Source: Coriobacteriales bacterium
GTDB taxonomy: Bacteria > Actinomycetota > Coriobacteriia > Coriobacteriales > UBA8131
Assembly (NCBI GenBank): GCA_031256715.1
Contig: JAIRQA010000012.1
Location: 525 to 64,524, forward strand
Direction of reading: 5' to 3'
Length of the DNA stretch: 64,000 bases
Shown: piece after piece, positions 39,619 to 59,352 of the stretch
Numbering within the stretch: position 1 is the stretch's first letter
Layout: every line of letters starts with the position of its first letter
Made by a program: the position numbers and the translations under genes
Notes under the pieces: model-generated
What the model was told of the DNA's origin: nothing
The model's database searches: none
Seen by the model: the letters and a program-made list of their open reading frames with translations, nothing else

Positions 39619-41441
39619 TGGCATACGCTATAGAATTTAAAGACGTAAGTTTTAGTTATGGTGCTTTATCAGAGCAGAAAAACGCTGTGCTTTCTAACAT
39701 TCACTTAAACGTGGCGCAAGGTGAATGCGTTTGTGTTACAGGCTCATCCGGATGCGGTAAGACTACACTCACGCGACTCGTTAATGGCCTTATTCCTTCT
39801 TTTTATGAGGGCACAAAGCAAGGTGAGGTTTTTGTTAATGGCATAGAGCTTGAGCAATGGGAGATGGACGAACTTTGTCGTGCGGTTGGGTCGGTGTTTC
39901 AAAACCCACGCAGTCAGTTCTTTAATTTAGACACGACGTCTGAACTTGCCTATGGTTGCGAGAATCTAGGGGTTAGTCGCGCAGAAACCCTGAGTAATGT
40001 TACTCGCGCGGCGGAGCTTTTAAACCTTCAGCATCTTTTAGATCGTGACATACACGATCTTTCTGGTGGCGAGCGCCAGCTACTGGCACTAGGCGCGGCG
40101 TGTGCCATGGGTGCTGACATCTTTGTTTTAGATGAGCCCACAGCCAACCTTGACGCGATTGCAACACAGGCGGTAAAGCGTACACTTCAGGCTCTTAAAA
40201 GCCAAGGGAAAACTATTCTTATGGTAGAGCATCGCCTGCATTGGCTTGATGGTTTGGTAGATCGCATGGTGTGCATGAGCGATGGGCGCATTATTAACGA
40301 TTATACAGTTAGCGAGTTTTGCAGATTGTCTACGGATGAGTTGGCTTTGATGGGGCTGCGTGCTTGGACGCTTTGCGATTTGCGTGTAAGCAAACATGAG
40401 ATAAACGCTTGCGAAAACGAACTACAAAATAGCGATGCGATCACAGTGGCACCATTTAGCATTCAGGCCGATAGCCTGCGTGCCAAACACCGTAAAAACA
40501 ATGAGGTGCTTAAGGGTCTGTCGTTTACGGTAACAGGGGGTCACGCGATTGCTGTCGTGGGGCGCAACGGACAGGGAAAGTCTACGTTGGCACATGTTAT
40601 TGCGGGACTTATGCGCGAGACCTATGGTGGCATCTCTGTTGACGCTCGCCCGCTTAGCGTGCGCGACCGCGTTGGCAACATCTATTTGGTGTTACAAGAA
40701 TCTGGGTATCAGCTTTTCGCTTCTAGCGTGCGCAAGGAGTTTACTATTGGCATGAAATCTGTAAGCGAAAATGACATGGCAGAAATTGATGATTTAATTT
40801 CGCGCTTTGCGCTTGTAGATAAAAGCGAGCGTCATCCGGCAAGTTTGTCGGGAGGCGAAAAGCAGCGGCTTGCCTTGGCGGTTGGCATTCATGCCGGAGC
40901 AAAGCTTTTAGTGCTAGATGAACCAACAAGTGGCTTAGATTATACAAATATGCGTCGCTGTGCCTTAGAGATTCGGCGACTTGTAAATTCTGGTCGTTGT
41001 GTTTTTGTAATCACGCACGATGTAGAGCTGGTTGCGGCGGCTTGCGATCAGGTTATAGAGGTAAATCGTGGTAGGGCGCATAGCACTTATGAGCTTAATG
41101 AGCGCACTTTGCCACGTGTGCTAAATATTTTGGCACCTGATTATGGCGAGTGTGCGCATGAGCAAGTGGCCTCGCATGAAAGCGAAAAAACGGCTTCACA
41201 TGAGCATGAGCAAGTGGTTGTGCGTGAAGACGAAAATTCGGCTTCGCATGAACGTGAACAAGTTGTTGCGCGCGGGCAAGACGAAGTGCTTATGCGCGGG
41301 CAAGACGAAGCGGTTGTAGTATCTGGCCTGCAAGCGCAAAGAAGGGATGTTGTTTATGCGCAGGAGCAAACGTTAAATGGCGCCGTCTTTTCTCGACATA
41401 AAAAAACTTTAAATGACAGGACGCAAGATATTCCGCCCTAA
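39618..41441 (+). CDS. ECF transporter ATPase, fused duplicated ABC domains (EcfA-EcfA')
   Basis: Two Walker A motifs (GSSGCGKTT, GRNGQGKST), two signatures (LSGGERQ, LSGGEKQ), and Walker B motifs IFVLDEPT / LLVLDEPT. The ATG overlaps the EcfT stop. About 100 aa of repeat-rich C-terminal tail. Confidence 0.9.
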   Translation: MAYAIEFKDVSFSYGALSEQKNAVLSNIHLNVAQGECVCVTGSSGCGKTTLTRLVNGLIPSFYEGTKQGEVFVNGIELEQWEMDELCRAVGSVFQNPRSQFFNLDTTSELAYGCENLGVSRAETLSNVTRAAELLNLQHLLDRDIHDLSGGERQLLALGAACAMGADIFVLDEPTANLDAIATQAVKRTLQALKSQGKTILMVEHRLHWLDGLVDRMVCMSDGRIINDYTVSEFCRLSTDELALMGLRAWTLCDLRVSKHEINACENELQNSDAITVAPFSIQADSLRAKHRKNNEVLKGLSFTVTGGHAIAVVGRNGQGKSTLAHVIAGLMRETYGGISVDARPLSVRDRVGNIYLVLQESGYQLFASSVRKEFTIGMKSVSENDMAEIDDLISRFALVDKSERHPASLSGGEKQRLALAVGIHAGAKLLVLDEPTSGLDYTNMRRCALEIRRLVNSGRCVFVITHDVELVAAACDQVIEVNRGRAHSTYELNERTLPRVLNILAPDYGECAHEQVASHESEKTASHEHEQVVVREDENSASHEREQVVARGQDEVLMRGQDEAVVVSGLQAQRRDVVYAQEQTLNGAVFSRHKKTLNDRTQDIPP

Positions 41442-41507
41442 GATCTAAGGCACCTATAGGACGCAAGATATTTTGCCTTAAGACCTAATGCGCCTATAGG
41501 ACGCAAC
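41418..41507. repeat. 40-bp tandem repeat x2.25 whose first copy contains the ECF-ATPase stop codon
   Basis: Units at 41418-41457 (TAA at 41439-41441) and 41458-41497, with a partial copy at 41498-41507. Confidence 0.9.
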
Positions 41508-41693
41508 AAAATCTAGCAAAAGAAGTTAATTAAAAAGCAAGCCAAAAAGCTGGGCAAAAATTAAGCAAGAACGAAGGTTATTTGATAATCAAGCAAGTAC
41601 AAAAGTTAGTCTTATACAACATTTGTAAGTGTAATATCTGTAAGCTCTCGCAGCTACAAGAGCCGCGGGAATTTAGAAAGGAAGCGTGATCTT

Positions 41694-42296
41694 ATGGCAA
41701 TAGGAAGTAATAATAAATGGCAAGGCAAGGATGTCATTCGTCTTGCGGTTTTTTCGCTCGTGCTATTTTTGGCAATGCTGGTGGGGGCGATGCCTTTTAG
41801 CATCACCTTAACCTCGTATTTTTATGGTGACGCGCTGGGAGCTGTGTTTGCCGGCATAGTTTGGATGTATATGCGTGGCACAATTCGCAAACCATGGGCT
41901 TGCCTGATTTCGTCGATCATTGTTGCCGCAGTTGCCTTTTTAATGGGGCAGATTTGGACGGCAGTACTTGGTATTGTTATTGGCGGCATTATCGCTGAGT
42001 TAATCGTGCGCGCAGGAAAATACACCAGTGCTGTAAGCAATATTATTGCTTTTGTTGTCTGGGTCTTGTGCTTTTGGGTGGGTCATGGCATTCTTGCGGT
42101 CTTTTCTGCCGATATGTTCAGAGAAATGATGCTTAACGCTCATATGACTGGCGAGCAGGTAGATTTGTTATTAAATGGCATTACAGGCATTAACTTAGTT
42201 CTTGCCCCCATTGCTTGCGTCGCTGGCGCACTAATTGGCAGTGGCTTGGGTTATGTCATCTTTAAAAAGCACTTTGCCCGCGCCACAGCATCGTAA
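41694..42296 (+). CDS. putative ECF transporter substrate-binding (S) component, MptD/Trep_Strep-like
   Basis: 200 aa and very hydrophobic (5-6 TM), with a basic C-terminal motif (FKKHFARATAS). It sits next to the ECF T and A-A genes. The family assignment is from memory of TIGR02185-type proteins and has not been verified. Confidence 0.55.
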   Translation: MAIGSNNKWQGKDVIRLAVFSLVLFLAMLVGAMPFSITLTSYFYGDALGAVFAGIVWMYMRGTIRKPWACLISSIIVAAVAFLMGQIWTAVLGIVIGGIIAELIVRAGKYTSAVSNIIAFVVWVLCFWVGHGILAVFSADMFREMMLNAHMTGEQVDLLLNGITGINLVLAPIACVAGALIGSGLGYVIFKKHFARATAS

Positions 42297-42314
42297 GGAA
42301 GGTTTGGGTTAGCG

Positions 42315-44381
42315 ATGACAAGCGAACAGCAAAAAAGCGTTAATACAAGCAATAACGAACGTAACGGCGAGCGCAGCAACGAACGCAGTGACGGACGTAA
42401 CAGCGAGCGCAGCAACGAGCGCAGCGGCGGACGTAATAGCGAACGTAATGACGAACGCACCAACGAACGCACCAACGAACGCGCAGAAACAAAAGGCGAT
42501 GGTCTTATTGCTTTAATTCGCTATGCTGGCAATCATCAGTGGCAGATTGTTCTTGGCTGTATATTGTCTGGCATCTCTGCGGTGCTAGCGCTCGTACCAT
42601 TTCTTTGCATTTGGCAGATTGCCTGCGAGCTATTAAGTGTGTTTCCAGATTTTTCTGCCGCCATAGATGTTGCGTTATACGCTTGGGTTGCTGCGGCTTC
42701 GGCGGCGGCAAGTGTCATCGCCTATATGGCTAGCTTGGGCTGCGCTCATCGTGCGGCGTTTCATGTTGCAACAAAAATTCGCAGTGTTTGCTGCAATCAT
42801 TTACTTCATGTGCCACTTGGTTACTATCAAAGTGTTTCTTCTGGTGAGTTGCGCCGCCGTATAGATTCCGGGGCCGACCTTACCGAAGACGTCATTGCGC
42901 ATAAATTACCAGATGTTGTTACTGCGATTGTAACACCTGTAGGCTTTATTGCCTTAAGTTTTGTTTTTGATTGGCGCTTGGGTTTGGCATGCCTGATACC
43001 TATCCTGCTTGGCTTTGTCTTATTAAGCATGACAATGGGCAAGGGAGCCGCAACCTCTATGGATGATTATCAGGATGCTCTTGATGCTATGAATGGTGAA
43101 GCTGTAGAGTATGTGCGCGGAATTCCTGTGGTAAAAATGTTTCAGCAGACGGTTTACTCGTTTAAGAGGTTTCATCACACCATCGTAGCCTACGGCAACC
43201 TTGCCTTTGGTTTTGCTCAATCTGGCTTAAAGCCGCAGCTTTATTTTGCGCTTGCCACGGCATCAACCTTTGTCATACTTATTCCGGTGGCGGCTTTTGC
43301 CGCAACGGCAGTAAGTAGCGATGCTTGGGCAGTTTTTGCGGCCGATGTTGTTTTTTATGCGGCGCTTTGTGGCATTACCTCCAGCATGCTTACACGCGTT
43401 ATGTACATAGGACAGTCTGTGATGTCGGCGCGTACTGCCATGCGCAATGTTAATGCGGTACTTGCGATAAAGCCTTTGTCGCAATTAGAGGTTCCTAAGC
43501 AGATGCGCAACGCCTCCATTGTTTTTGAAGATGTTTGCTTTACCTACCCAGATGCCTCTTATGAAGCCATCGCGCATGTTTCATTTAGTGTTCAACCTGG
43601 CATGCGCGTGGCGCTCGTTGGTCCATCTGGTGGTGGAAAATCTACTTGCGCATCGTTAATTCCTCGCTTTTGGGATGTAGACTCTGGCGCGGTAAAAGTA
43701 GGCGGATGCGATGTTCGCGATTTAGATCCTCGCGATTTAATGGAAAACGTGGCCTTTGTTTTTCAGGGTGGCAAGCTCTTTCGCGACTCTATTTTAGAAA
43801 ACGTGCGTGCTTCTCGCCCCGATGCAACGCGCGAAGAAGTTATGTTGGCACTAGCAGAAGCACACTGCGATGATATCATAGCTAAACTGCCTCAGGGAAT
43901 AGATACAGTTATTGGTGCTAGTGGCGTTTATCTTTCTGGTGGAGAGCACCAGCGCATCTTGCTTGCGCGAGCAATTCTTAAAGACGCGGCAATCGTTGTG
44001 TTAGACGAAGCAACAGCCTTTGCCGATGCCGATAACGAGGCGCGTATTCAGGAGAGCCTAAAGCGCATTATGAGTGGACGCACGGTTGTAACTATTGCAC
44101 ATAGGTTAACAACTGTTGTAGATGCCGATCAGATTTTGGTGCTTGCAAATGGAGCCATCGTAGAGCGCGGTACACATGAAGAGCTAATAAATGCAGCAGG
44201 GACATATAAGCGCATGTGGGACGACTACTGCAACTCTTTAACATGGGAGGTAACCGGCTTTGACGCAGGCGAAGATTTAAGCGCGCAAGCGCAGGGAGGC
44301 TCTGCAACAAATTTTCATCAACATCGCGAAACTCGCACAGGCGGGGCTGCAATCGCGCAAGCGCAGGGAGGTTACGAATGA
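42315..44381 (+). CDS. ABC transporter, fused permease-ATPase (type I exporter fold)
   Basis: N-terminal TMD and C-terminal NBD with Walker A GPSGGGKST, signature LSGGEHQR and Walker B VVLDEAT. About 60 aa of N-terminal (N/S/D)ER(S/N/T) repeat extension. Confidence 0.9.
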   Translation: MTSEQQKSVNTSNNERNGERSNERSDGRNSERSNERSGGRNSERNDERTNERTNERAETKGDGLIALIRYAGNHQWQIVLGCILSGISAVLALVPFLCIWQIACELLSVFPDFSAAIDVALYAWVAAASAAASVIAYMASLGCAHRAAFHVATKIRSVCCNHLLHVPLGYYQSVSSGELRRRIDSGADLTEDVIAHKLPDVVTAIVTPVGFIALSFVFDWRLGLACLIPILLGFVLLSMTMGKGAATSMDDYQDALDAMNGEAVEYVRGIPVVKMFQQTVYSFKRFHHTIVAYGNLAFGFAQSGLKPQLYFALATASTFVILIPVAAFAATAVSSDAWAVFAADVVFYAALCGITSSMLTRVMYIGQSVMSARTAMRNVNAVLAIKPLSQLEVPKQMRNASIVFEDVCFTYPDASYEAIAHVSFSVQPGMRVALVGPSGGGKSTCASLIPRFWDVDSGAVKVGGCDVRDLDPRDLMENVAFVFQGGKLFRDSILENVRASRPDATREEVMLALAEAHCDDIIAKLPQGIDTVIGASGVYLSGGEHQRILLARAILKDAAIVVLDEATAFADADNEARIQESLKRIMSGRTVVTIAHRLTTVVDADQILVLANGAIVERGTHEELINAAGTYKRMWDDYCNSLTWEVTGFDAGEDLSAQAQGGSATNFHQHRETRTGGAAIAQAQGGYE

Positions 44382-46144
44382 TGGCAAATGCTAACATAGA
44401 TAATAAACAACATGCTAGCTTTTTTATGCGCAAGTATAATCTGTCTAAGCAAGGGACACGAGTCTTTTATCGTGGTTTAGTTTGGTCTGCCATATCTAAC
44501 ATTGTTAATATGGCACCTGCTCTTATCTTGCTTATGGCACTTGTAGATATCGTGCGCCCTTTAGAAAATGGCGAAAGTTACGCGATTGAGCCATGGAAAT
44601 ATCTGCTCGCGTTTTTACTAACACTGCTTGCGGTGGGTATCGCGCAGGCACGCAAGTATCGCGCTACATTTTGCGATACTTACGAAGAAAGCAGCCGCCG
44701 TCGTATTGGAATTGCCGAGCGCCTGCGCGTCTTGCCCCTGTCCTTTTTTAGCAAACGCGACCTGGCAGACCTAACAACTGTCATCATGGGCGACTCCGAA
44801 AACAATGAGTTTGCAATCTCGCACACATTACCGCAACTTTGGGGCATGGTTGCCTTCATAATTGTCTCTGCTGTCGCGCTGCTTATTTGCGATTGGCGTA
44901 TGGCTTTGGCAAGTCTTTGGGTTGTGCCTGTTGCCTTAGGCGTAGTTTATGCCAGCAGAAGCACACAGAGAAAAATGGGCCGAGCCGTGGCTAATGCCAA
45001 GGTAGAAAGTGCCGAGTCTATACAAGAGTTAATCGAGTGCGCTCAAGACATTCGCGCTTGCAACCGCCAAGAGATTGTTGACGAGCACTTGTTGCAAAAA
45101 TTTATTTATGTCGAGAAGATGCAAGGGCGCTATGAGCTCTTTGCGTCGGTGGCACTTACTTCGGCACGTTCTTTTTTACAACTGGGCATAGCCACAACGT
45201 TACTTGTGGGTGTGGCGCTTCTTGTTATGGGCAGTCTTAGCTTGCCAATGTTTTTGCTTTTTGTTTTGGTGGCAACCCGAATCTATGACCCGGTTACAGA
45301 AATGCTGATGAACATTTTGGCGACCTTTGCCGCAGACGTGAGCAACGAGCGACTTGCCGCCATAGAAAACCACCCTATTGCCGGTGGCACAACAAGTTTT
45401 GTTCCTGAAAGTTTTAATATCACGTTTAAGGATGTGCATTTTGCCTATGATGAGGACGCAGATCCGGTTTTACATGGCGTTTCATTTATAGCGCGACAAG
45501 GACAAACCACCGCATTGGTAGGTCCATCAGGCTCAGGAAAGACTACGGTTTCTAAACTTGCTGCACGTCTTTGGGATGCACGGGAGGGAACTATTTGCTT
45601 GGACAACACAGACGTTACTTCTGTAGATCCGGAAACTTTACTAAGCAACTTTTCTCAGGTGTTTCAGGATGTTGTCTTGTTTAGTGGCACGATACGCGAA
45701 AATATACGTCTTGGTAAACGCGATGCTACAGATGAAGAGATAGAGGCTTGCGCACATGCTGCACAGTGCGATGAGTTCATTTTGCGTTTGCCAAAAGGCT
45801 TAGACACAGAACTTGCAGAAAATGGCGCGACACTATCTGGCGGTGAACGACAGCGCATCTCTATCGCTCGCGCTTTGCTTAAAGACGCGCCCATAGTCTT
45901 GCTTGACGAAGCAACTGCATCCCTAGACCCAGAGAGCGAAACGCTGGTGCAGCAGGCCATTGCCACGCTTACGGCAGGCAAGACAGTGCTCATGGTTGCT
46001 CATCGCATGCGTACTGTGCTACATGCCGACCACATAGTTGTGCTTGATGGCGGTCGTGTGGTAGAAGATGGCGCTCCCGACGAGCTGCTTAAACATGAGG
46101 GAATGTTTAAGCATCTATGCCAGTTGCAGGGTGCGTTGTCGTAA
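44378..46144 (+). CDS. ABC transporter, fused permease-ATPase (partner of the previous gene)
   Basis: The ATGA overlap with the upstream gene (44378-44381) implies coupling. Walker A GPSGSGKTT, signature LSGGERQR, Walker B VLLDEAT. Confidence 0.9.
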   Translation: MMANANIDNKQHASFFMRKYNLSKQGTRVFYRGLVWSAISNIVNMAPALILLMALVDIVRPLENGESYAIEPWKYLLAFLLTLLAVGIAQARKYRATFCDTYEESSRRRIGIAERLRVLPLSFFSKRDLADLTTVIMGDSENNEFAISHTLPQLWGMVAFIIVSAVALLICDWRMALASLWVVPVALGVVYASRSTQRKMGRAVANAKVESAESIQELIECAQDIRACNRQEIVDEHLLQKFIYVEKMQGRYELFASVALTSARSFLQLGIATTLLVGVALLVMGSLSLPMFLLFVLVATRIYDPVTEMLMNILATFAADVSNERLAAIENHPIAGGTTSFVPESFNITFKDVHFAYDEDADPVLHGVSFIARQGQTTALVGPSGSGKTTVSKLAARLWDAREGTICLDNTDVTSVDPETLLSNFSQVFQDVVLFSGTIRENIRLGKRDATDEEIEACAHAAQCDEFILRLPKGLDTELAENGATLSGGERQRISIARALLKDAPIVLLDEATASLDPESETLVQQAIATLTAGKTVLMVAHRMRTVLHADHIVVLDGGRVVEDGAPDELLKHEGMFKHLCQLQGALS

Positions 46145-47385
46145 TGATGTCTGCGAGTGCATCTTTGCCAAAAGCTTCTCTGGTTGGTTCTTGTAAGACT
46201 AGCTTTTTGCCAATGACAACTGTGCCGGCGACTTCTTTAATTGGTGCAGCCCCTACAGCTTCTACAGCAGCATCCTTTTCTGCCATTAATGTGGCATATG
46301 TCATGCTTGATGGCTATGAACATGAAAGCGAAGCAAGAATTTCTTCATTAATCTCGCGCTTAAGCAGACGCGTGTCTGAGGCTCGTATAGAAAAAGCAAG
46401 GCGGTTGCGACAACCAATAGACAAGCTAGCGTCTTTAACCGCCGGGGTACTTATTAACATTGTTGCTGAACCTTTTAAGGATAGACGAACCCTGCCGCTT
46501 AACTACGAACACAATGAGCACAATGAGCGCTATGAGCACAATGAGTATAACGGCTTCAGCAACAAGGACAGCTCTGGCAAGAATGGCAGCTATAGCAACA
46601 ATGATGGCTATAGCTACAATGGCAGCTATAGCAACAATGGCTGTTATGGCAACAATGATGGCTATAGCAACAATGGCAGCTATAGCAAGCCCGATTTTCC
46701 AAATGCTATGGGGCTGCACTATAACCTCTCGCATAGCAGGGCAGTTGCTTGTTGCGCAGTCTCGCGGTTTCCCGTTGGCATAGATGTAGAGGGCTATATT
46801 CATCACTTTGACGAGCTTTGCGCGATGTGTTTAACAACTGACGAGGACAGGCATATTAAAAAGCAAGCAAATCGCGCCGAACGCGTTAGATGCTTTACAA
46901 GGCTGTGGACGCGCAAAGAGGCACTTGGTAAGTATATAGGCTGCGGAATAGACGAGAGCATCTTGCGTGCTGACTTACTTCATTGGCCTCAAGGAGCGAA
47001 AGCTATTCTTGCGTCGCGACGTGTTAGTGATATAGCTAACACAGAAATCGCAAGTGTGGCGTCTGGCACACGAACAGCGTCATACTCAGACGCAACGCGT
47101 GACACACGAACAGCGTCAAGCTCAGACGCAACGCGTAGCACAAGCGATACGGCCAGTGGTGTTCCTCAGATAACAACCTACGACTTGCACGAAGCGTGCA
47201 TGTCTGTTTGCGGTCATGGCGAGGTGCATGTTTCTTGTTATTCCTTAGACGAGGTTATTGCGCTTGCTACCTTAGCACCTACCACTTTGCATCACTGTGC
47301 CCAGACGCCTAGCGCTTCTGAGCACTGTGCCCAGACGCCAGTGTTGCAGAACCATTGTAAAACCGAATTACATGAAAGCGAATAA
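46144..47385 (+). CDS. 4'-phosphopantetheinyl transferase, Sfp type
   Basis: Motifs LSHSRAVACCAVSRFPVGIDVE and FTRLWTRKEALGKYIGCG (the W/FxxKE(A/S)xxK motif). The start is uncertain. ATG 46144 overlaps the ABC stop (TAATG), while the conserved core begins near ATG 46303. A (N/G)(G/S)YSNN repeat insertion lies at about 46500-46690. Confidence 0.85.
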   Translation: MMSASASLPKASLVGSCKTSFLPMTTVPATSLIGAAPTASTAASFSAINVAYVMLDGYEHESEARISSLISRLSRRVSEARIEKARRLRQPIDKLASLTAGVLINIVAEPFKDRRTLPLNYEHNEHNERYEHNEYNGFSNKDSSGKNGSYSNNDGYSYNGSYSNNGCYGNNDGYSNNGSYSKPDFPNAMGLHYNLSHSRAVACCAVSRFPVGIDVEGYIHHFDELCAMCLTTDEDRHIKKQANRAERVRCFTRLWTRKEALGKYIGCGIDESILRADLLHWPQGAKAILASRRVSDIANTEIASVASGTRTASYSDATRDTRTASSSDATRSTSDTASGVPQITTYDLHEACMSVCGHGEVHVSCYSLDEVIALATLAPTTLHHCAQTPSASEHCAQTPVLQNHCKTELHESE

Positions 47386-47390
47386 TGTAA

Positions 47391-48995
47391 ATGAACGAAC
47401 AAATAGAGGCTCAACTAATAAAATCATATATAGATGGTGGCTACTGGCAAGATATAACACTAGGCGACTTTCTGCGCGATTGTGCGCGTAAATGGCCTAA
47501 GAATATTGCCGTGCTTGATGCCATGGAATCACTGACCTATGAAGAGCTTAATAAGGCGAGCGATAGCATCGCTTGTTATCTTGCAAAACTTGGCATCGCT
47601 TGTGGCGATCGTATTTTGTTTCAGATGAAGAATTGCGTTTGGCACACTGCTACATTATTTGGCATAGCCAAGGCAGGAGCTATACCCATTATGGCGCTTG
47701 GAGCGCATCGTTATAAAGAGCTTTTAAGCTTTGCGCAACGTGCCAATCCTGTGGCATTTATCACAAATGAGATATATCAGGGTTTTAACTATCCTGCTCT
47801 TGCCAAAGAGGTGCAATTAGATGCCCCAAGCATACGCGATGTCTTAACAGTTAGTGACATGATGCGTGCTGCTCATGAGGGTAACGTGCTTACGGCAGAA
47901 CAGTATGCAAAACGCAGACCAGAATTTACAGACCCTTGCGTGCTTACTTGTTCTGGCGGTTCTACTAACGTACCCAAGCTTATTCCGCGCAGACATACAG
48001 ATTACCTTTACGATGCCCAAACATTTGCCGCATTTTTAGACATGAAGCAAAGCGATGTTTATCTGATTGCCTTGCCAGCTTCGCATAATTTTGTCTTTGG
48101 TAACCCAGGGGTGTTGGGCACACTTTCGTTAGGGGCTACTGCCGTAATGTGTGAAAATCCCAGCCCAGACGAGATTTTACCCATGATAGACGAACATCGC
48201 GTAACTATCACCGCCTTAGTGCCCGCAGTACTTTCTGCCATGCTTGACACCTTGTCATGGGACGATGCCTATGACACAACTTGCTTGCGCCTCCTTTTGG
48301 TGGGAGGAGCCGTGCTAGAAGAACAACTTGCGCGTAAAACGCTACAAAAGTTTCCTGGTTGTTTGCGGCAGGTGTTTGGTACGGCCGAGGGTATTAACTT
48401 TTGTACGTCTGCTAACGACTCTGACGATATTGTAGTTAGCTGCCAAGGTAAGCCAATTTCGCCAGCTGATAAATGGCGCATTGTTAACGAAGATTTGTGT
48501 GAGGTTGCTCAAGGCGAGTCTGGCGAGCTTATTGCTTTGGGTGCGTATACCATACAGCACTATTATAATGCCCCTGAGGCCGAAGACTCTTTTACTGCGG
48601 ATGGCTATTATCGTACTGGCGATAAGGCTCATGTTAGCGCAGAAGGAAATCTGGTGGTAGAAGGTCGCGTTACAGAACAGATTAATCGAGGTGGCGAGAA
48701 GGTCATGCCCAGCGAAATTGAAGGCTATCTTGCTGCCTTTCCGGGCATTGAAGAAGTTCAGGTTGTTGGTGTTGCCGACGAATTGCTTGGTCAGCGTGTT
48801 TGCGTGTATCTGATTGGTGAGCCTGAGCAAACTCCTGAGCAAACGCCCACGCCCATGCAGTTAAATAGTTACCTTGCTAATTTGGGGGTTGCGGCGCACA
48901 AAAGTGTCGATCAAGTGCGCAGCATAGACTCATGGCCGCTTACAAGTGTTGGCAAGATTAATCGCAAGTTGCTTTGCGAATGGGCGGCGTCTTAA
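47391..48995 (+). CDS. aryl-acid (DHB/salicylate-type) AMP ligase, EntE/DhbE/YbtE family
   Basis: The family-typical N-terminus (YIDGGYWQDITLGDFL...WPKNIAV), A3-like CSGGSTNVPKLIPRRHTDY, YYRTGD and GRVTEQINRGGEKV. It stands alone directly upstream of an NRPS that begins with a carrier domain. Confidence 0.85.
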   Translation: MNEQIEAQLIKSYIDGGYWQDITLGDFLRDCARKWPKNIAVLDAMESLTYEELNKASDSIACYLAKLGIACGDRILFQMKNCVWHTATLFGIAKAGAIPIMALGAHRYKELLSFAQRANPVAFITNEIYQGFNYPALAKEVQLDAPSIRDVLTVSDMMRAAHEGNVLTAEQYAKRRPEFTDPCVLTCSGGSTNVPKLIPRRHTDYLYDAQTFAAFLDMKQSDVYLIALPASHNFVFGNPGVLGTLSLGATAVMCENPSPDEILPMIDEHRVTITALVPAVLSAMLDTLSWDDAYDTTCLRLLLVGGAVLEEQLARKTLQKFPGCLRQVFGTAEGINFCTSANDSDDIVVSCQGKPISPADKWRIVNEDLCEVAQGESGELIALGAYTIQHYYNAPEAEDSFTADGYYRTGDKAHVSAEGNLVVEGRVTEQINRGGEKVMPSEIEGYLAAFPGIEEVQVVGVADELLGQRVCVYLIGEPEQTPEQTPTPMQLNSYLANLGVAAHKSVDQVRSIDSWPLTSVGKINRKLLCEWAAS

Positions 48996-49065: not shown

Positions 49066-52000
49066 ATGCAATCTGTTGATACTTGCGAAATTGCAGATGA
49101 TACTTGCGAAATTGCAGATATTATTCACAAACATACGCTACCATACGGCGGCAAGGATGAGACAAATCTAATTAAGGCAGGCATGAATTCATTGGCAATT
49201 ATGCGCCTTGCAAACCAATTGCGTCGTCAAGGTGCGCGAAAAGTCACTTTCTCTAAGCTGATGGTAGAACCTACACGCTGTGCTTGGCTAAAACTTGCGG
49301 GAGCAAATGTATCTAGTGCAACATGTGAAGTTTTCGCAACAACAACCGCGCCATCTACATTAACAATCGCGGCAGCCGAACAGACGGCCGTGACAAATGA
49401 ACAAACAACCGCACCATCTACACCAACAATCGCGACTGCCGAACAGACGGCCGTGACAAATGAACAAACAACCGCGTCCAATGAAGCAACAATCGCAACC
49501 ACTTCTAAAGACGACTTTCAACCTTTTGCGCTCACAGACATTCAACGAGCCTACTTTATTGGACGACAAGATGGAATACCCATGGGAGGCAATGGCTGCC
49601 ACGCATATCTAGAATTGCATGGACAAAATGTTGATCCCAAACGTTTACAGGATGCCTGGCAAATGCTATTTAATACTCATGCTATGTTGCGAGCATACTT
49701 TACAGATGATGGCAAGCAATGTATTAGCGAACAAGCATCACCATCTGCAAGTGAGCTTGTTGTCTGCAACTTAAGCATGTTAGAGCCAACGCGTGCACAG
49801 CAAGAGTTTATGGCTATTCGCGAAAAACTCGCGCATAGGCGTTTAGATGTAGCATCTGGACAAACATGTGGACTTTGCCTTGTCTTGCTTCCAAATTCTT
49901 TAACGCGGGTTTGCTTTGACATCGATCTTCTTGTCTGCGATGTTCAGAGCTTTCAGATTCTGTTACGCGATTTGGCCGCTGCCTATGCAGATGCTAGCTT
50001 ACCTTTGGCAGATCCTGCTTGGAGTTTCGCATCGTATCTTGCTCATGAAGATGTCTTGGCTAAGGCAGCTTCGCTAGAGCGCGAACAGGACGCGGCATAT
50101 TGGCAAGCACGCATCAGCAATCTTGCGCACGGTCCTAAGCTGCCAACTGTTGTGGACCCAGATACTGTCTTTTCTCCACATTATACAAATTATGCGCATC
50201 AGGTTTCTTCTGAAGCTTATGAGGCGTTAAAGCATCACGCGAATGCTCGCGGCGCGACGGTGGCCATGGTGTTGCTTACAGCCTATGCGCAAATCATTGC
50301 GGCGTGGAGCGAGAATCAGCGCTTCCTGATTAACATGCCGGTTTTTGCCCGTAATACCAGCGTTTCCGGCATTGAGGATGTCGTCTCGGATTTTTCGGAC
50401 ATACTTTTGTTTGAGGTTAACTGCCAAGAGCCTGCGACTTTTGAGGAACGCTTAAAGCAGATTAGCGAGCGTTTTTTGCAGGACATGGCGCATCGTTCCT
50501 ACAATGGTATCGCGGTGCAGCGCGATATCGCGGCGGCAGGAGGACCACAAATGGGCTTGGCGCCGCTGGTGTTTGCCTGCAATCTTGGCGAGCAGCTCTT
50601 AACGGATGTCTGCTTAAAGCATCTGGGCGAGCTTGGCTATATGACCTCGCAGACTCCGCAGGTACAAATAGATTGCCAGGCTTTTGACCACAAACAAGGA
50701 CTGCGACTTTCTTGGGACGTTGCTTTGGAGCTGTATCCAAATGGCATGTGTCAAACGATGTTTGTTGCGTTTTGTAATTTTGTCGAGAAACTCGCGGCTT
50801 CAGACGATGCCTGGCTTGCGCCCATTGATGTTTTGCCCAACGAACAGCGAATGCGTCGCAAGGCAGAGCTTGAGTTAATGCTTGAGCAGTCAGCGTTAGA
50901 TGCAGATTTGGCGCCGTTGCGCAAGGAGCTGCGTGAGGGGCAGACGTCAGGTGCAGATTTGGCGCCGGTGCGCGAGGAGTTGCGTGAGGGGCAGACGTCA
51001 GGTGCAGATTTGGCGCCGCTACATGCAGCTTTTGTTGTTAACGTGCATTCTAAACCTGAGGCAATAGCTCTAATAGATGCGCAGTCGGGAGAGAAAAGCA
51101 GTTATCGCCAGCTATATTTACGTGCCGGTGCCATTGCTGAATACATTCTTAGTGCCGGCACACAACATGGTGAGCTTGTTGCCATATGCCTTAAGCGAGG
51201 GCGCGACCAGGTGTGCGCGATGCTTGGTATTTGCATGGCTGGTTGCGCGTATGTGCCTATAGATGTTTCTCAGCCGCAGTCTCGTAAGCGCTTGATGGCA
51301 GAGAAATTAATGGCGCGGTATGTGCTTACGAGCAAGTCGTTGGCAGATGAGAGTACGATGTTTGAGCATGTTTTAGCTATAGAGGATGTAGCCGAGGTAG
51401 CTGAGGTTGCGTTTGAGGATAGTGCAGAATTTGCCATATCACAGTCACGCATTAATGATCTGGTTAAAAAGCATATGCCGCAAGCTAATGATACCGCATA
51501 CATCATCATGACCAGTGGTTCTACGGGAACGCCCAAGGGCGTAGAGATGTCTCATGGCGCAACATGGAACACACTTAGCGATGTTAATTCACGTCTGAAC
51601 GTAGGTGTGGGCGACACAATGTTAGCTGTATCTAACTATGATTTTGACCTTTCGGTCTACGATGTCTTTGGCATCTTGGGTGCCGGAGCGACCTTGGTTT
51701 GCATGCCCGATGATGCCCGACGCGACGCGGCGCGCGAGTTAGATTTTGTTTTGCGCTACAAGGTGACATTATGGAACACCGTCCCTATGCTTTTAGACAT
51801 GCTCATTACCGAGGCCGAGAGTAAAAAAGCCGAGCTGCCCTTGCGCGTTGTCATGCTTTCTGGTGATTGGATAGGCTTAGACTTACCGCAGCGCCTGAAA
51901 AATCTGGCTGCGAATTGCCGTTTTATTGCGATGGGCGGCGCCACCGAGGCAGCGGTTTGGTCTAACTGGCAAGAAGTTAATTTGCCTATACCAACGCATT

Positions 52001-55000
52001 GGAAGAGTATTCCTTATGGTCGTCCACTGCGGGCGCAATGCTATCGTGTGGTTGATGCTTGTGGCAACGATCGTCCGGATTGGGCAATTGGCGAGCTTCT
52101 TATTGGCGGTGTTGGTGTTGCCAAAGGATATCGCGGCGACGAGGAACTTACAGCCGCGCATTTTTTGCAACAGGATAAGACGCGCTGGTATCGCACTGGC
52201 GACATGGGACGCTTTTGGGATGATGACACGATAGAATTTTTGGGGCGGCGCGATTTTCAGGTTAAGGTAAAAGGACATCGTATAGAACTTGGCGAGATAG
52301 AATCTGTGCTTGTAGAGCATCCTGACGTCTTAGCTTGTGCGCTTTGTGTTGCACAGTCTTCTAATCAGCTAATTGCTCTGGTACAACCAGTTGCAATGCA
52401 TTCAGATATGGGACAACCAGTTGCAATGCATTCAGATATCTTAGAACCAAGCACCAACGCTATACAGCCAAGCACAGGCCATGCGCTAGACCTTGATTCT
52501 TTGGCAGACTTCATGGCGCAACGACTACCCGCTTACATGGTGCCATCGCGCTTTGTGCTTATAGATGCCCTACCTATTTCTGCAAATGGAAAGCTTGATC
52601 GCAAGGCAATTGCTGCGCTTGCCCAACAGGCGGCCGAAACTCTTAGAACAGACGACGATTTGCCTAAGACAGCCACAGAAGAATGCATCATCCAAATTTG
52701 GGAAGAGGCGATGGGCATTAAAAACATTGGGCGCAACGAAAGTTATTACGAGTTGGGCGGTAATTCCTTAATAGCAACACGTGTAATTGGCGTCGTGCGC
52801 GAGCGTTTAAACATCAATCTTACCACTGCAGATGTGTTTACGCATACAACCGTAGCCGAGCTTGCTCGCTTAATAGACGAGCGTGTAAGTTTTTCTCGAC
52901 ATAATAACCAGCCAGATAGTCAGCCAAGTAGCCAATCAAGTAGCTTACCAAGCAGTCAACAAGATAACCAAATTAGCAGCCAACAAAAAGATTATTCTAA
53001 GACGAGGAGCATAGTGCAAGACACACAAGACATTCAAGGCATTCAAGACATTCAAGAGGCGCAAAACGCTCAAGACACTCAAGACGCAATAACAAGCGCG
53101 CAGTTACAGGCAAGCGCGGCAAAACTTCCCGAGCTTGCGGCGCGCGAAGATGAGCTAGACGCTCCTTTTGCCCTTACTGCTTTGCAACGCGCTTATCTAA
53201 TTGGGCGCATGAAAGGTATGGTTTTAGGAGGGCAGGCGACGCGCGCCTATTTAGAGGTTACCGTTAGCAACTTAGATATGAGTCGCCTTGGTGCGGCCAT
53301 GACAGAGTTGGTTAAAGTTCAAAGCGCGCTGCGTATTTCGGTTGATGCCGCAAGCGCCACGCAGGTTATTAACGAAAAAGTGCCTTTGGTTGTCATTCCC
53401 CTTGCCGATGTCTCATACCTTAACAATGATGCCTATGACGAGTTCCTAGATAACAAGCGTGAGCAAATGTTTAATCACGAGTTTGATTTATCGCGTCCGT
53501 TTCTTTGGATGATGGAGGTTACGCGCAGAAATGACGAGTGGCATATTCACTTTTGCCATGATGGCATTCTTATGGATGGCTGGAGTTGTGAGCGCCTATT
53601 TGCCGACTTAGAAACCCTGTATCATAATGGCACATTTGAAGTGGGTATCTCTTATCGCGATTATGTTTATTGGTTGCAAGAGATTCATGATAGCGAGACC
53701 TATACAAAAGATGAGCAGTATTGGCTGGCCAAAGCTCAGGAATTTCCCGAAACTCAAGCTCTTAAGCCAGCTTGCCTTCCAGAGGCAATTACTAATCCCG
53801 AAACTGCTCATGTGACACGTACGATTTCACTCGATCGCTTTAATGCCATCAAGCGCGCTGCTGCCTCTTACGAAATGACAGTTTTCGCGGCCATGCTTTG
53901 TGCCTTTGGCAAAGCGCTTGAACTTAATGGAGGCTGCCACGATTTTCTTATTAACACGCCAGTTGCTTATCGACCTTTAACCAGTAGCAACGCTCAAGTT
54001 AATAGCGATCTTTATAAGCTTCTTGGAGAATGCTCAGATTATCGTCTTTTTCATTTTAGTACTCTAGCAAACGAGACGATTGCCCAAACTGCCAAAAAGG
54101 TATTCGCTCAACTTACAGACGAGGGTTTGCACACAGCGTATCGTGGCAGTGACCTCTCGCGTGCAATGCAGCAATATTCGGGGGCGTCTGCGCTTGCGCC
54201 AATAGTGTTTACAAGTACCGCCGAGGTAGATCTTAAGCCGTCAACATGGTATCGCAAAGTGGCGTCGCGTACGCATACTAGCCAGGTTTGGATGGACGCT
54301 GTGGTCATGCCCATAGATCAAGGTATCATGTTAAACATAGATTACGTAGATGGTTTGCTTGAGGCAGGTACACCTGAGCGCGTGGCAGACGCTTTTGTTA
54401 GGGCACTAGATTTACTTGTAGATGAACCCGGTGCCTGGGACAAATTAACTCAGTTGCCATTGTCGCCAACCGAACAAGAACTCATTAACCAAACTAATGC
54501 GACAGATGTTTTGCCTGTTGCCACAACATATGCGCCATTGCTTCGCAATGCCTTTAGCAATTATGCTAGCAAGATAGCAATTAAAAATGTCGAGAAAAAC
54601 CTGACCTACCGCGAGTTAGAACAGTTAACGAGTTGCATTAGCGCGGCAATAGAAGCAAAGCTGGCTGAGCCTGCTGAGCCTGCTGAGCTTGATGCTGCGC
54701 CCGCTTCCGTCTTAGACAAAGACACTCGCGCAAGAATTGGTATAGCAGTTGGCAAGGGTGCAAAACAGGTGGCCGCCGCATTGGCGTGTGCTGCTGGTGG
54801 CTACCCCTTTATGCCTATAGATATCGAATACCCTGCACAAACAATACGCGCATGCTATCTAGCTAGTAAGCTAGCATTTGTTATTGTAGACTCGCAAACC
54901 GCGCACCTTGTTCCCGAAGATGTCCCAACACTTAATGTTTGCGAAGCGCTTCCTAAAGAAGGCTCAATCACATGGCGTGACGCTTGCGAAAGCGATGTGT

Positions 55001-56745
55001 TGGCAATTATTAACACATCTGGTTCTACGGGCGCACCAAAAGGTATACAGCTAACCAACGAGGGAGTGGTTAACTGTTTGCTTTGGAGCAAAGAAGCATT
55101 TAGTATAGACGAAACCAGCTGCGTGCTGGCAATAACAAATTTCGCCCACGACATGGCGCTATATGATACGCTTGGGCCATTGCTTTCGGGCGCAAGCCTT
55201 GCAGTTTTAGATGAGCAGACACGCCGCGAACCACGTGCTTGGGCAAAAACTATGGATGTTTGCAATGTGACTTTTTGGAATTCAGTACCGGCGCTAATGC
55301 GTATGTTGCTTGAGGTGGCAGGCCCTATAAGCGCAAACGCGCTGAAGTCGCTGCGTTGCGTAGTGCATGGTGGAGACTGGCTAGACCCTGCCTTGGCGCG
55401 TCAGATAACAGAAACGTTTCCCAATGTTCGCCTATTTAATGTTGGTGGTCCTACAGAAACAACTATTTGGAATATCGCTCATGAGGTTACCGACGACGAC
55501 ATTCAAAGTGGCGTTATTCCTTATGGGCGCCCAATCTGGAACACCAAATATTTTGTGCTTGATGACCGCATGAACCTTTGCCCACCTGAAGTGGCTGGCA
55601 TTATGCATGTTGCCGGCGTTGGGGTTTCTGCAGGTTATATAAATGCAGTTGCGCTTAATGATGTCGTCTCTGACGATGTTGCCTCTAAAGATGTTGTCTC
55701 TGACGATGTTGCCTCTAAAGATGTTGTTGGTACTTTAACTACCGCAACAGATCTTGATGCAAAAGACAATGGTTCTTGCGATGAACCTCAGGTCTTTACG
55801 AACTTAAATGGAATGCGCGTCTGCTGCACTGGCGATCGCGGAATGTATTTGCCTAGCGGTGAGCTGCGCATTTTGGGTCGCGCCGATTTGCAAGTTAAGG
55901 TTAATGGAAAGCGCATAGAGATTGGCGGTATAGAGCGCCTTTTAAATCAGATAGATGGCATAAGCGCAAGTGCCGTAGTTGTAAATGAGGCTGTTGGACG
56001 ATTGATCGCCTATTTCATTGGCGATACCAATGATGCCATTATTCCCGAGGATGAAATTCGCTCGCAACTGTCGTGCTGGCTGCCAGCCTACATGATACCA
56101 ACGCGTTTTATTGCCATTGAACAGATGCCACTAACACGCAATGGCAAACCAGATCGCAAGGCATTAGCTAAGTATGAATTGCCTGGACACAGTTGCTCAG
56201 ATCATAGCCGTGAGGCTGCACTGCCTAAAGCAGCGGAAATTAAGAGTGTGGCAGCTACAGAGAATGCAGAACAGCTTACGCCTGCTATTACGAAAGAACA
56301 GCTTACGCCTGCTACTAGGATAGAGCAACAAACTTCAGTCACTGCGATAGAGCAACAAGCGTCTTTTGCATCGTTAATTTCTTCAAGCTCGTTAGACGCC
56401 TTAGCTGATACTAGCTTGGCAGAAGCTTCTGCAGCAGATGAGCTTGCATTTTTAGGCAAAGCCGGCAATGACGCTGCAGTTTTGTCATCAAACAAGAACG
56501 TAAATGAAGAGGCAGAAAATCGCTTTAATGATGTTTTATTAAAACTGGTGACATTTTGTCGCGAATCAATTGGCGATGAGACAATCCAGCCTGACGACAA
56601 CTTCTTTGCTATTGGTGGCGACTCGCTTACAGCAATGAAGATCGGTGCTTGGGCTTACGATCAATTTGGACGCGAACTTACGGTAGTGCAAATTATGGCA
56701 CAGCCCACAGTTAGAGAGTGGGCTGAAATCCTCTGTGATGAATAA
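49066..56745 (+). CDS. non-ribosomal peptide synthetase, ArCP-Cy-A-T-Cy-A-T (2559 aa)
   Basis: ArCP at about 49108-49305 (GMNSLAIM, Ser codon 49189). Cy1 at about 49519-50865 (PFALTDIQRAYFIGR; DLLVCDVQS = DxxxxDxxS at 49924-49950). A1 at about 51013-52620 (TSGSTGTPKG, FDLSVYD, LSGDWI, GGATEAAVWS, YRTGD, GRRDFQVKVKGHRIELGEIE, NGKLDRK). T1 at about 52663-52881 (GGNSL, Ser 52765). Cy2 at about 53161-54465 (PFALTALQRAYLIGR; DGILMDGWS at 53560-53586; IVFTST). A2 at about 54508-56163 (TSGSTGAPKG, HDMALYD, GGDWL, GGPTETTIWN, TGD, GRADLQVKVNGKRIEIGGIE, NGKPDRK). T2 at about 56518-56730 (GGDSL, Ser 56623). No TE, R or terminal C domain. Confidence 0.95.
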   Translation: MQSVDTCEIADDTCEIADIIHKHTLPYGGKDETNLIKAGMNSLAIMRLANQLRRQGARKVTFSKLMVEPTRCAWLKLAGANVSSATCEVFATTTAPSTLTIAAAEQTAVTNEQTTAPSTPTIATAEQTAVTNEQTTASNEATIATTSKDDFQPFALTDIQRAYFIGRQDGIPMGGNGCHAYLELHGQNVDPKRLQDAWQMLFNTHAMLRAYFTDDGKQCISEQASPSASELVVCNLSMLEPTRAQQEFMAIREKLAHRRLDVASGQTCGLCLVLLPNSLTRVCFDIDLLVCDVQSFQILLRDLAAAYADASLPLADPAWSFASYLAHEDVLAKAASLEREQDAAYWQARISNLAHGPKLPTVVDPDTVFSPHYTNYAHQVSSEAYEALKHHANARGATVAMVLLTAYAQIIAAWSENQRFLINMPVFARNTSVSGIEDVVSDFSDILLFEVNCQEPATFEERLKQISERFLQDMAHRSYNGIAVQRDIAAAGGPQMGLAPLVFACNLGEQLLTDVCLKHLGELGYMTSQTPQVQIDCQAFDHKQGLRLSWDVALELYPNGMCQTMFVAFCNFVEKLAASDDAWLAPIDVLPNEQRMRRKAELELMLEQSALDADLAPLRKELREGQTSGADLAPVREELREGQTSGADLAPLHAAFVVNVHSKPEAIALIDAQSGEKSSYRQLYLRAGAIAEYILSAGTQHGELVAICLKRGRDQVCAMLGICMAGCAYVPIDVSQPQSRKRLMAEKLMARYVLTSKSLADESTMFEHVLAIEDVAEVAEVAFEDSAEFAISQSRINDLVKKHMPQANDTAYIIMTSGSTGTPKGVEMSHGATWNTLSDVNSRLNVGVGDTMLAVSNYDFDLSVYDVFGILGAGATLVCMPDDARRDAARELDFVLRYKVTLWNTVPMLLDMLITEAESKKAELPLRVVMLSGDWIGLDLPQRLKNLAANCRFIAMGGATEAAVWSNWQEVNLPIPTHWKSIPYGRPLRAQCYRVVDACGNDRPDWAIGELLIGGVGVAKGYRGDEELTAAHFLQQDKTRWYRTGDMGRFWDDDTIEFLGRRDFQVKVKGHRIELGEIESVLVEHPDVLACALCVAQSSNQLIALVQPVAMHSDMGQPVAMHSDILEPSTNAIQPSTGHALDLDSLADFMAQRLPAYMVPSRFVLIDALPISANGKLDRKAIAALAQQAAETLRTDDDLPKTATEECIIQIWEEAMGIKNIGRNESYYELGGNSLIATRVIGVVRERLNINLTTADVFTHTTVAELARLIDERVSFSRHNNQPDSQPSSQSSSLPSSQQDNQISSQQKDYSKTRSIVQDTQDIQGIQDIQEAQNAQDTQDAITSAQLQASAAKLPELAAREDELDAPFALTALQRAYLIGRMKGMVLGGQATRAYLEVTVSNLDMSRLGAAMTELVKVQSALRISVDAASATQVINEKVPLVVIPLADVSYLNNDAYDEFLDNKREQMFNHEFDLSRPFLWMMEVTRRNDEWHIHFCHDGILMDGWSCERLFADLETLYHNGTFEVGISYRDYVYWLQEIHDSETYTKDEQYWLAKAQEFPETQALKPACLPEAITNPETAHVTRTISLDRFNAIKRAAASYEMTVFAAMLCAFGKALELNGGCHDFLINTPVAYRPLTSSNAQVNSDLYKLLGECSDYRLFHFSTLANETIAQTAKKVFAQLTDEGLHTAYRGSDLSRAMQQYSGASALAPIVFTSTAEVDLKPSTWYRKVASRTHTSQVWMDAVVMPIDQGIMLNIDYVDGLLEAGTPERVADAFVRALDLLVDEPGAWDKLTQLPLSPTEQELINQTNATDVLPVATTYAPLLRNAFSNYASKIAIKNVEKNLTYRELEQLTSCISAAIEAKLAEPAEPAELDAAPASVLDKDTRARIGIAVGKGAKQVAAALACAAGGYPFMPIDIEYPAQTIRACYLASKLAFVIVDSQTAHLVPEDVPTLNVCEALPKEGSITWRDACESDVLAIINTSGSTGAPKGIQLTNEGVVNCLLWSKEAFSIDETSCVLAITNFAHDMALYDTLGPLLSGASLAVLDEQTRREPRAWAKTMDVCNVTFWNSVPALMRMLLEVAGPISANALKSLRCVVHGGDWLDPALARQITETFPNVRLFNVGGPTETTIWNIAHEVTDDDIQSGVIPYGRPIWNTKYFVLDDRMNLCPPEVAGIMHVAGVGVSAGYINAVALNDVVSDDVASKDVVSDDVASKDVVGTLTTATDLDAKDNGSCDEPQVFTNLNGMRVCCTGDRGMYLPSGELRILGRADLQVKVNGKRIEIGGIERLLNQIDGISASAVVVNEAVGRLIAYFIGDTNDAIIPEDEIRSQLSCWLPAYMIPTRFIAIEQMPLTRNGKPDRKALAKYELPGHSCSDHSREAALPKAAEIKSVAATENAEQLTPAITKEQLTPATRIEQQTSVTAIEQQASFASLISSSSLDALADTSLAEASAADELAFLGKAGNDAAVLSSNKNVNEEAENRFNDVLLKLVTFCRESIGDETIQPDDNFFAIGGDSLTAMKIGAWAYDQFGRELTVVQIMAQPTVREWAEILCDE

Positions 56746-57787: not shown

Positions 57788-57826
57788 ATGTTGATAAGAA
57801 TGAACACACGAGGAGAGATCAAAACA

Positions 57827-59278: not shown

Positions 59279-59352
59279 ACATGCATAAGAACAACCTAGA
59301 GAATAAAAACTTGAATAATCAATTAACAAACAAACAACCTAAGGAGCAAGTA

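Follow-up and report, generated by a model that had tools for sequence, protein, structure and literature searches.

Which aromatic acid primes a metallophore assembly line when the ligase that would load it follows neither of the two familiar pocket codes? This question is raised by a locus of a Coriobacteriales bacterium (GenBank assembly GCA_031256715.1, contig JAIRQA010000012.1, positions 525 to 64,524), of which the 64,000 nucleotides form the window to which all coordinates below refer. The gene at 47391-48995 on the forward strand encodes a stand-alone aryl-acid adenylating enzyme of 534 amino acids (P0001), very likely, and with little doubt in our minds, the loader of the aryl carrier protein (ArCP) of a thiazoline metallophore line. 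Its pocket bears asparagine at both positions that discriminate between 2,3-dihydroxybenzoate (DHB) and salicylate. We find it plausible, with chances slightly better than even, that an acid other than salicylate and 2,3-DHB is used, because two invariant, recurrent and coupled asparagines stand where ring carbons C3 and C4 are read and because the pocket is remodelled beneath C4. The fuller proposal, a loader for a starter other than plain salicylate or 2,3-DHB, probably imported, in a line of the pyochelin/equibactin type, appears to us evenly balanced between right and wrong.

Aryl caps set which metal the thiazoline and oxazoline chelators bind, and how tightly. What is known of cap choice rests almost wholly on the Ser/Val code of DHB enzymes and the Cys/Leu-Ile code of salicylate enzymes. 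The Asn/Asn pair would represent a third pocket type, conserved, recurring in several lineages, and present in strict anaerobes for which no DHB or salicylate route is known.

The ligase belongs to the aryl-acid adenylating enzymes

The reading frame is open and intact, without any fused domain, and both PF00501 and PF13193 are present. Thirteen solved aryl-acid adenylating enzymes are matched with E-values from 1e-119 to 1e-79, with CahJ (1e-119), FscC, DhbE (2e-113) and MbtA on top. The core motifs SGGSTNVPK, YRTGD and GRVTEQINRGGEK are found, together with the catalytic Lys522 of motif A10 (48954-48956, forward strand; equivalent to Lys517 of PheA), which is invariant in 58 homologues. An AlphaFold2 model built from a 58-sequence alignment has a mean pLDDT of 94 and superimposes on both DhbE (1md9) and PchD with a TM-score of 0.88 and an rmsd of 2.9 Å. 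An earlier sequence-only reading of this DNA had assigned the enzyme to the EntE/DhbE/YbtE type, and the structural matches, motifs and predicted fold bear this out. The A5 motif, RQVFGTAEGI, is identical at seven of ten residues to QQVFGMAEGL, the form called strictly conserved in aryl-acid adenylating enzymes (PMC11253843); its changes include Met to Thr and Leu to Ile, and the Thr variant is common among Firmicute-type homologues.

Among the NCBIfam models, the top match is TIGR02275, the equivalog for DHB-AMP ligases. This would speak for a 2,3-DHB-AMP ligase, but the score of 459.8 bits lies far under the cut-off of 723.55, which is passed by DhbE, EntE, BasE, FbsH and FscC. Against the equivalog NF008192 the protein scores 405.6 bits, and the cut-off of 783 is not reached either.

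Two asparagines in the substrate pocket

The pocket was read from HMMER alignments to CahJ, FscC, DhbE and MbtA, which are gap-free over the pocket motif and the A5 strand. The motif HNFVFGNPG (amino acids 232-240; 48084-48110, forward strand) aligns onto HNYPLSSPG of DhbE, HNFALACPG of CahJ, HNFPMSSPG of FscC and HNFPLACPG of MbtA. It provides His232, Asn233 as reader of the ortho-hydroxyl, Phe234 for ring stacking, and Asn238 at the position held by Ser240 in DhbE and by Cys in salicylate enzymes. Further along, LVGGA (amino acids 303-307; 48297-48311, forward strand) has Leu303 where the canonical code has Gln (position 299 of PheA), while Gly305 and Gly306 line ring positions 5 and 6. In the A5-region strand QVFGTAEGINFCT (amino acids 327-339; 48369-48407, forward strand), Val328 corresponds to Val329 of DhbE, Asn336 to Val337, Phe337 to Asn338 and Cys338 to Tyr339. 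The ten-residue code is thus N-F-N-A-L-G-V-N-F-K. As in the whole aryl-acid clade, Asn (here Asn233) replaces the Asp235 that binds an alpha-amino group, within a His-Asn-Phe start that Pro239-Gly240 follows.

Relative to DhbE, the counterparts of His234, Asn235, Gly306, Gly307, Val329 and the A10 lysine are retained, and Phe stands at Tyr236. Five residues are changed: Ser240 to Asn238, Gln304 to Leu303, Val337 to Asn336, Asn338 to Phe337 and Tyr339 to Cys338. The published codes are N-Y/F-S-A-Q-G-V-V for DHB and N-F-C-A-Q-G-V-L/I for salicylate, and the only enzyme in our comparison with another substrate, SnbA (3-hydroxypicolinate), reads N-F-C-S-Q-G-V-L (Table 1, PMC3672683); for the ligases of quinoxaline and hydroxyquinaldate, no codes are listed in a review of bisintercalators. 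With Asn at both discriminating positions (240 and 337, DhbE numbering, used below for these two positions), neither the DHB nor the salicylate code is matched. The sequence-only reading had pointed to HNFVFGNPG, with Phe at the Tyr/Phe position and Asn at the Ser/Cys position, and the gap-free alignments agree: the positions were not misassigned, and the code differs from that of known DHB and salicylate enzymes. The salicylate pattern given there has to be corrected, as the discriminating Cys immediately precedes Pro-Gly (HNF[PA]L[ASC]CPG) and is not the residue that had been marked; the replacement by Asn stands. The Phe at 236 is uninformative, being present in almost all of 120 homologues.

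Studies on related enzymes give these positions a structural meaning. The 2-hydroxyl is hydrogen-bonded by Asn235 and the 3-hydroxyl by Ser240, and in CahJ the equivalent Cys and Leu flank ring positions 3 and 4 (PMC11253843). In FbsH and BasE, ring C4 lies 3.5-4.4 Å from the equivalents of Val329, Ser240 and Val337 and about 6 Å above that of Tyr339 (PMC11661926, PMC12005286). The S247C exchange in BasE lowers the efficiency with DHB more than 10-fold (PMC12005286), a smaller residue at the Tyr339/Phe350 equivalent raises the activity on 4-amino-salicylate about 50-fold (PMC11661926), and 4-substituted salicylates are admitted once the C4-facing residues of FbsH or BasE are shrunk (PMC11661926, PMC12005286). 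The engineered variants BasE V336A/G and FbsH F350A, which take 4-substituted salicylates, resemble the present enzyme in that the same residues set the tolerance for C3/C4 substituents and in the small residue at 339/350, here Cys338. They differ in being laboratory mutants from which bulk was removed, whereas the natural enzyme installs two carboxamides. We infer from these comparisons that the pocket has kept its grip on carboxylate, ortho-hydroxyl and ring face, and that its base at C3/C4 has turned polar and probably deeper.

An alternative is a 2,3-DHB-AMP ligase, in which Asn238, aided by Asn336, would hydrogen-bond the 3-hydroxyl in the stead of Ser240 and the DHB would be scavenged, for instance from catecholate siderophore breakdown or plant material. 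Asn, like Ser, can both donate and accept a hydrogen bond, and DHB-thiazoline siderophores such as anguibactin exist. However, Asn at 337 has more bulk toward C3 than Val has, and such bulk has been invoked to explain why the Leu/Ile enzymes reject DHB (PMC3672683); all DHB-type sequences surveyed, 40 clusters in one clade, keep Ser and Val. Together with the low equivalog score, this makes a DHB ligase improbable in our view. The solved enzymes of this group (DhbE, EntE, BasE, FbsH and FscC; PDB 1MD9, 3RG2, 3O82, 9BHY, 6E8O) share 29-39% identity with the ligase (about 37% for DhbE) and all catalytic motifs, but have Ser240, Val337, Gln304, Asn338 and Tyr/Phe339. The salicylate enzymes PchD, YbtE, CahJ and MbtA (PDB 7TYB, 5WM2, 5KEI) are 35-39% identical over the full length and share the fold, the His-Asn-Phe start of the motif and the priming of synthetases with cyclization domains; they differ by Cys at 240 and Leu or Ile at 337, and they retain Gln304 as well as an aromatic side chain at 339.

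The pocket is conserved in its clade and recurs in others

Eight relatives with 59-73% identity, from Coriobacteriales metagenome-assembled genomes (MAGs), Slackia exigua and metagenome proteins, all have HNFVLGNPG and GTAEGINF(C/S)T. Asn233, Phe234, Val235, Gly237, Asn238, Pro239 and Gly240 are invariant in these eight members, as are Gly330 to Phe337 and Thr339 across the whole clade. Leu is found at the 303 position in eight of nine members, and Gln in P0004; counted over nine relatives in this identity range, the pocket is nearly invariant. A strain about 97-98% identical, present in gut metagenomes from a second study, shows 26 nucleotide differences and 7 amino acid changes over the covered parts of the gene, none of them in the pocket. 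The motif is therefore no chance or assembly oddity, since the residues named are invariant in the clade and the pocket is untouched in a strain from another study. Isolates of S. exigua carry an orthologue with 59-61% identity, so the substrate question can be put to the test in a cultured organism.

When clustered at 50% identity, the whole query clade collapses into a single representative out of 1.84 billion, and the match that follows it is 44% identical. About 108 neighbouring representative clusters were compared for the residue pair at 240 and 337, which is Ser/Val in 40, Cys/Leu in 18, Cys/Ile in 12 and Asn/Asn in 3 (4 if the query's own cluster is counted in). Wherever 337 is Asn, position 240 is polar as well, being Asn, His, Thr or Ser. 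In a FastTree phylogeny of 221 sequences, of which the deep nodes are weakly supported, Asn-337 occurs in six lineages and the Asn/Asn pair in four of these. Two MAG proteins, one of Ruminococcus flavefaciens and one of Eubacterium, join the query clade to form one Asn/Asn clade (support 0.99), and P0132, P0030/P0034 and P0175 are Asn/Asn enzymes on separate branches. Outside the query clade, the pair occurs in no fewer than three further lineages of rumen and gut anaerobes. The tree suggests at least three origins of the pocket; because of the weak deep nodes the number is given only as this minimum and is not fixed more exactly.

The same tree bears on the alternative that the enzyme is a salicylate-AMP ligase with another solution for its pocket, where Asn238 and Asn336 fill the space at C3, in the manner of Cys and Leu/Ile in YbtE, PchD and EqbD, and a hydroxyphenyl-thiazoline chelator is made from scavenged salicylate. 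In the tree its closest neighbours belong to the Firmicute type and have a Cys/Leu or Cys/Ile code, the known members of equibactin/pyochelin-type clusters all use salicylate, and Asn is near Leu in size and larger than Cys. There is also a precedent for external salicylate, used by Streptococcus equi in the absence of a salicylate synthase (PMC3672683). Nevertheless, Cys with Leu or Ile is kept across phyla, in 30 of the approximately 108 clusters against 4 with Asn/Asn, and steric exclusion alone leaves unexplained why two carboxamides are invariant, why Gln304 and Asn338 are lost together, and why Cys has replaced the aromatic residue under C4. We consider this alternative unlikely, though it deserves attention.

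Two further sequences are related to this pocket. In the Eubacteriales Family XIII MAG Po218_bin102 (L010:6146-6886), an open reading frame (ORF) of 247 amino acids matches the query's N-terminal half at only 34% identity, has the same HNFVLGNPG and ends just past this motif; it is followed by a gene for an ATP-binding cassette (ABC) ATPase, and has been either truncated or split. The metagenome contig JAEEGL013440914.1 carries an equibactin-like cluster in which the ligase (L027:9458-11026) is 39% identical to the query and has a His/Asn pocket (HNFIIGHPG, GTAEGLNTMT), with a hexapeptide acetyltransferase and a glycosyltransferase encoded between ligase and synthetase. A similar His/Asn enzyme is found in Butyrivibrio sp. 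NC3005 (P0135).

Origin of the aromatic acid

None of the ORFs in the window encodes an isochorismate synthase, salicylate synthase, isochorismatase or DHB dehydrogenase, in line with what had been noted from the sequence. The search was extended to the whole genome (G000, 78% complete) and to the two other genomes bearing the cluster, G684, a Coriobacteriaceae MAG (94% complete; locus L009), and G402, a Coriobacteriales MAG of the same family (88% complete; locus L008, on a short contig). The sole PF00425 protein of G000 is TrpE, in a trpE-trpG-trpD operon, and that of G684 is its orthologue (53.5% identity), also in a trpE-G-D operon. No PF00425 protein, TrpE included, was found in G402, and no chorismate lyase (UbiC) in any of the three. 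The genome-wide check for isochorismate or salicylate synthase homologues thus returned nothing but TrpE, in the case of G000 from a genome that is 78% complete. Matches to the isochorismatase family exist in these genomes but have little meaning without an isochorismate synthase. In the L027 locus aryl-acid synthesis genes were likewise not found. This differs from the producers with the well-known enzymes, in which salicylate is made by PchAB, YbtS or MbtI and the DhbE/EntE-type ligases are encoded beside genes of the entC/entB/entA type.

Because no isochorismate or salicylate synthase is found in the three cluster-bearing genomes, the acid, whatever its identity, is likely, and we would say so with good confidence, to be scavenged or made by an unrecognised route. 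The equibactin system of S. equi is a direct precedent: its cluster lacks a salicylate synthase, the acid is taken from the medium, and salicylate has to be added to defined medium (PMC3672683). A termite gut metagenome contains the full DNA of the ligase gene and is probably its source, and we would expect plant-derived aromatic acids in such a gut. Sequence sets in which only small shares of the gene's words occur (X4 and X5) were not counted as evidence on habitat.

The visible tryptophan pathway offers another candidate, anthranilate from the cell's own TrpEG, which would give an aminophenyl-thiazoline chelator. It is the only ortho-substituted benzoate whose synthesis can be seen in these anaerobes, with TrpE-TrpG-TrpD in both G000 and G684, and its 2-amino group could fit Asn233. 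Yet G402 bears the cluster and TrpE was not found there, anthranilate has no group at C3 or C4 for the two asparagines to read, and the known activators AuaEII and PqsA are CoA ligases with different pocket residues (PMC11253843). We regard anthranilate as quite improbable.

For uptake, attention had been drawn to the major facilitator superfamily (MFS) transporter gene at 35711-37321 on the reverse strand. It does lie next to the gene for the AraC-family regulator, directly downstream of it, and its product, related to aromatic acid/H+ symporters, is the best such protein of G000 (TIGR00895, 204 bits; cut-off 418). Whether it belongs to the system is doubtful, and a role as conserved partner in uptake was rejected, since no homologue is found near the cluster in G684 or in two Slackia-like contigs described below (L025 and L026), while G684 and G402 have weak family matches elsewhere. 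It may serve uptake in this strain. Of the idea that an unusual or scavenged aromatic acid is used, the non-canonical code, the missing synthesis genes and the equibactin precedent are retained, and the MFS link is not. Elsewhere in the genome (G000:C113:59295-63055; L004, L040), an AMP-binding ligase of 527 amino acids is encoded directly upstream of a second MFS protein resembling aromatic-acid/H+ symporters (137 bits), which suggests uptake and activation of aromatic acids for further purposes in this organism.

Proposed function

In the reading that we favour, the ligase would adenylate an aromatic carboxylic acid with ATP, providing the starter unit of a thiazoline metallophore line. His232, Asn233, Phe234 and Lys522 would keep hold of the carboxylate, the ortho-hydroxyl and the ring face, so that the pocket would retain the geometry of a salicylate-like 2-hydroxy acid above a polar and somewhat deeper base. 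Candidate substrates would be salicylates with hydroxyl or amino groups at C3/C4 (2,4-dihydroxybenzoate, 2,3,4-trihydroxybenzoate, amino-salicylates) or a hetero-aromatic analogue. The acid would be imported from the termite gut, as salicylate is for equibactin, or would come from an unrecognised pathway.

Several points weigh against this proposal. Pocket codes are imperfect predictors, and the family is not strictly selective, since wild-type FbsH accepts DHB and salicylate about equally (PMC11661926). Asn238 could block the 3-position like the Cys of a salicylate enzyme or hydrogen-bond a 3-hydroxyl like the Ser of a DHB enzyme. All three cluster-bearing genomes are incomplete MAGs, and the neighbouring MFS transporter, the one feature that hints directly at uptake, does not accompany the cluster in other genomes. 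In our literature searches on Asn/Asn aryl ligases or aryl-thiazoline starters of anaerobes nothing specific was found, nor any characterised Asn/Asn enzyme.

A bolder version, which we offer as tentative and rather unlikely, is that the Asn/Asn enzymes form a distinct specificity class of termite-gut, rumen and oral anaerobes, building a polyhydroxy- or amino-benzoate derived from diet or from lignin or flavonoids (e.g. 2,4-dihydroxy- or 2,3,4-trihydroxybenzoate) into a thiazoline metallophore. If true, the chelating head group would be supplied by the plant diet of the host and not by the bacterium. With a plant-derived substrate, metallophore production in gut communities would hinge on diet chemistry, and genome-mining calls of 'DHB' or 'salicylate' ligases for Asn/Asn enzymes would mis-predict the products.

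A probable metallophore gene cluster

The ligase lies within an operon, from which the gene for the AraC-family regulator (37491-38510, reverse strand) diverges; copies 45% identical stand at the same place in L009, L025 and L026. The forward-strand genes begin with an energy-coupling factor (ECF) transporter (T, fused A-A and S components) and an ABC permease/ATPase pair (38788-46144), syntenic in the same three loci, followed by a 4'-phosphopantetheinyl transferase (PPTase)-like protein of 422 amino acids (46117-47385; PF01648, with AusB/HetI-type matches) and the ligase. Next comes an NRPS (non-ribosomal peptide synthetase) of 2559 amino acids (49066-56745) which, from Pfam, motif and code reading, has the order ArCP-Cy-A(Cys)-T-Cy-A-T (Cy, cyclization; A, adenylation; T, thiolation). 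Its N-terminal ArCP domain (49066-49320; GMNSL, with Ser42), upstream of the first Cy domain, would be the acceptor of the activated acid. A stand-alone thioesterase (56754-57563; PF00975, 1e-36) and two stand-alone condensation-like proteins (57788-60702; PF00668), conserved in L008 and L009, are also encoded on the forward strand.

Both Cy domains have the DxxxxDxxS motif (DLLVCDVQS at amino acid 287 and DGILMDGWS at 1499), and no HHxxxDG motif is present. The first A domain has the code DLYNMSMVWK, a cysteine code by comparison with HMWP2 (PMC3672683). The second, DMYNVGVIWK, resembles a cysteine code at 239, 278, 330 and 331 but departs from it with Met236, Val299, Gly301 and Val322, and its substrate may be other than plain cysteine. 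This domain (55018-56100, amino acids 1985-2345) also contains an inserted tandem repeat of DVVSDDVASK at amino acids 2199-2218. Direct repeats occur likewise in the N-terminus and the ArCP-Cy linker of the NRPS (amino acids 1-165, 49066-49560): two copies of DTCEIAD, and two of a stretch of about 20 residues, TAPST(L/P)TIA(A/T)AEQTAVTNEQT.

By homology and synteny, we infer a cluster for a thiazoline metallophore of the equibactin/pyochelin-like type. The closest parallel is the equibactin cluster on ICESe2 of S. equi, in which a stand-alone ligase, EqbD, occurs beside an ArCP-Cy-A(Cys) NRPS, and in which transport genes (an ECF-type importer and a YbtPQ-like ABC pair), a PPTase and a thioesterase are encoded as well (PMC3672683). 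The two systems differ in the ligase code, N-F-C-G-Q-G-I-I of the salicylate type in EqbD against N-F-N-A-L-G-V-N here, in the regulator, IdeR/DtxR-like in S. equi and AraC-type here, and in the end of the line, where the present NRPS finishes in a T domain and is followed by two free condensation-like proteins.

Related loci in other genomes

The gene order of G684 (L009) is identical, with 54-73% protein identity, and the part of the cluster present on the short contig of G402 (L008) is in unchanged order. The Slackia-like loci L025 and L026 (ENA contigs OKVV01000300.1 and OKVD01000147.1), with a ligase 89% identical to an S. exigua protein, keep the stretch from the AraC gene through the ligase, with ECF genes, ABC pair and PPTase included, and have relaxase, helix-turn-helix and caspase-family genes in place of the NRPS, thioesterase and condensation genes. 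At the opposite end of the locus, L025:2-286 encodes a 95-residue fragment of an NRPS A domain. These two loci resemble a cluster that was rearranged or has decayed, situated on a mobile element or next to one.

Of 24 further genomes in the same family, one was found to have the ligase, as was one of 339 in a neighbouring family; in a 401-genome sample of the class it was found in no additional genome. The G+C content tracks that of each host, with 47% here where the genome has 45%, and 53-68% in the remaining loci; old and patchy transfer is what this points to.

Such patchiness, and mobile-element genes in the place of the NRPS where ligase and transporters are kept, could also mean that the gene is a decaying remnant without current function. 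However, its frame is intact with all core motifs and Lys522, the entire cluster is intact here, in L008 and in L009, and 19 of the 26 differences in the closely related strain are silent. A relic is therefore very improbable, with hardly any weight among the explanations considered.

Neighbouring genes

Upstream of about the 27-kb mark, the window contains housekeeping genes (hydrogenase, FtsZ, SepF, ProC and glycyl-tRNA synthetase). On the other side, convergent on the cluster, a molybdopterin oxidoreductase of 882 amino acids is encoded at 61196-63844 on the reverse strand. As a member of the cluster it was rejected, since in G684 it is not conserved beside the cluster and only a paralogue of 27% identity lies at a distance of about 9 kb. 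Among solved structures it matches acetylene hydratase best (2e7z, 8e-86), and the match to pyrogallol hydroxytransferase reaches 2e-6 at most. The catechol dehydroxylases of Eggerthellaceae lie close to this branch, so that the oxidoreductase may act on aromatic compounds.

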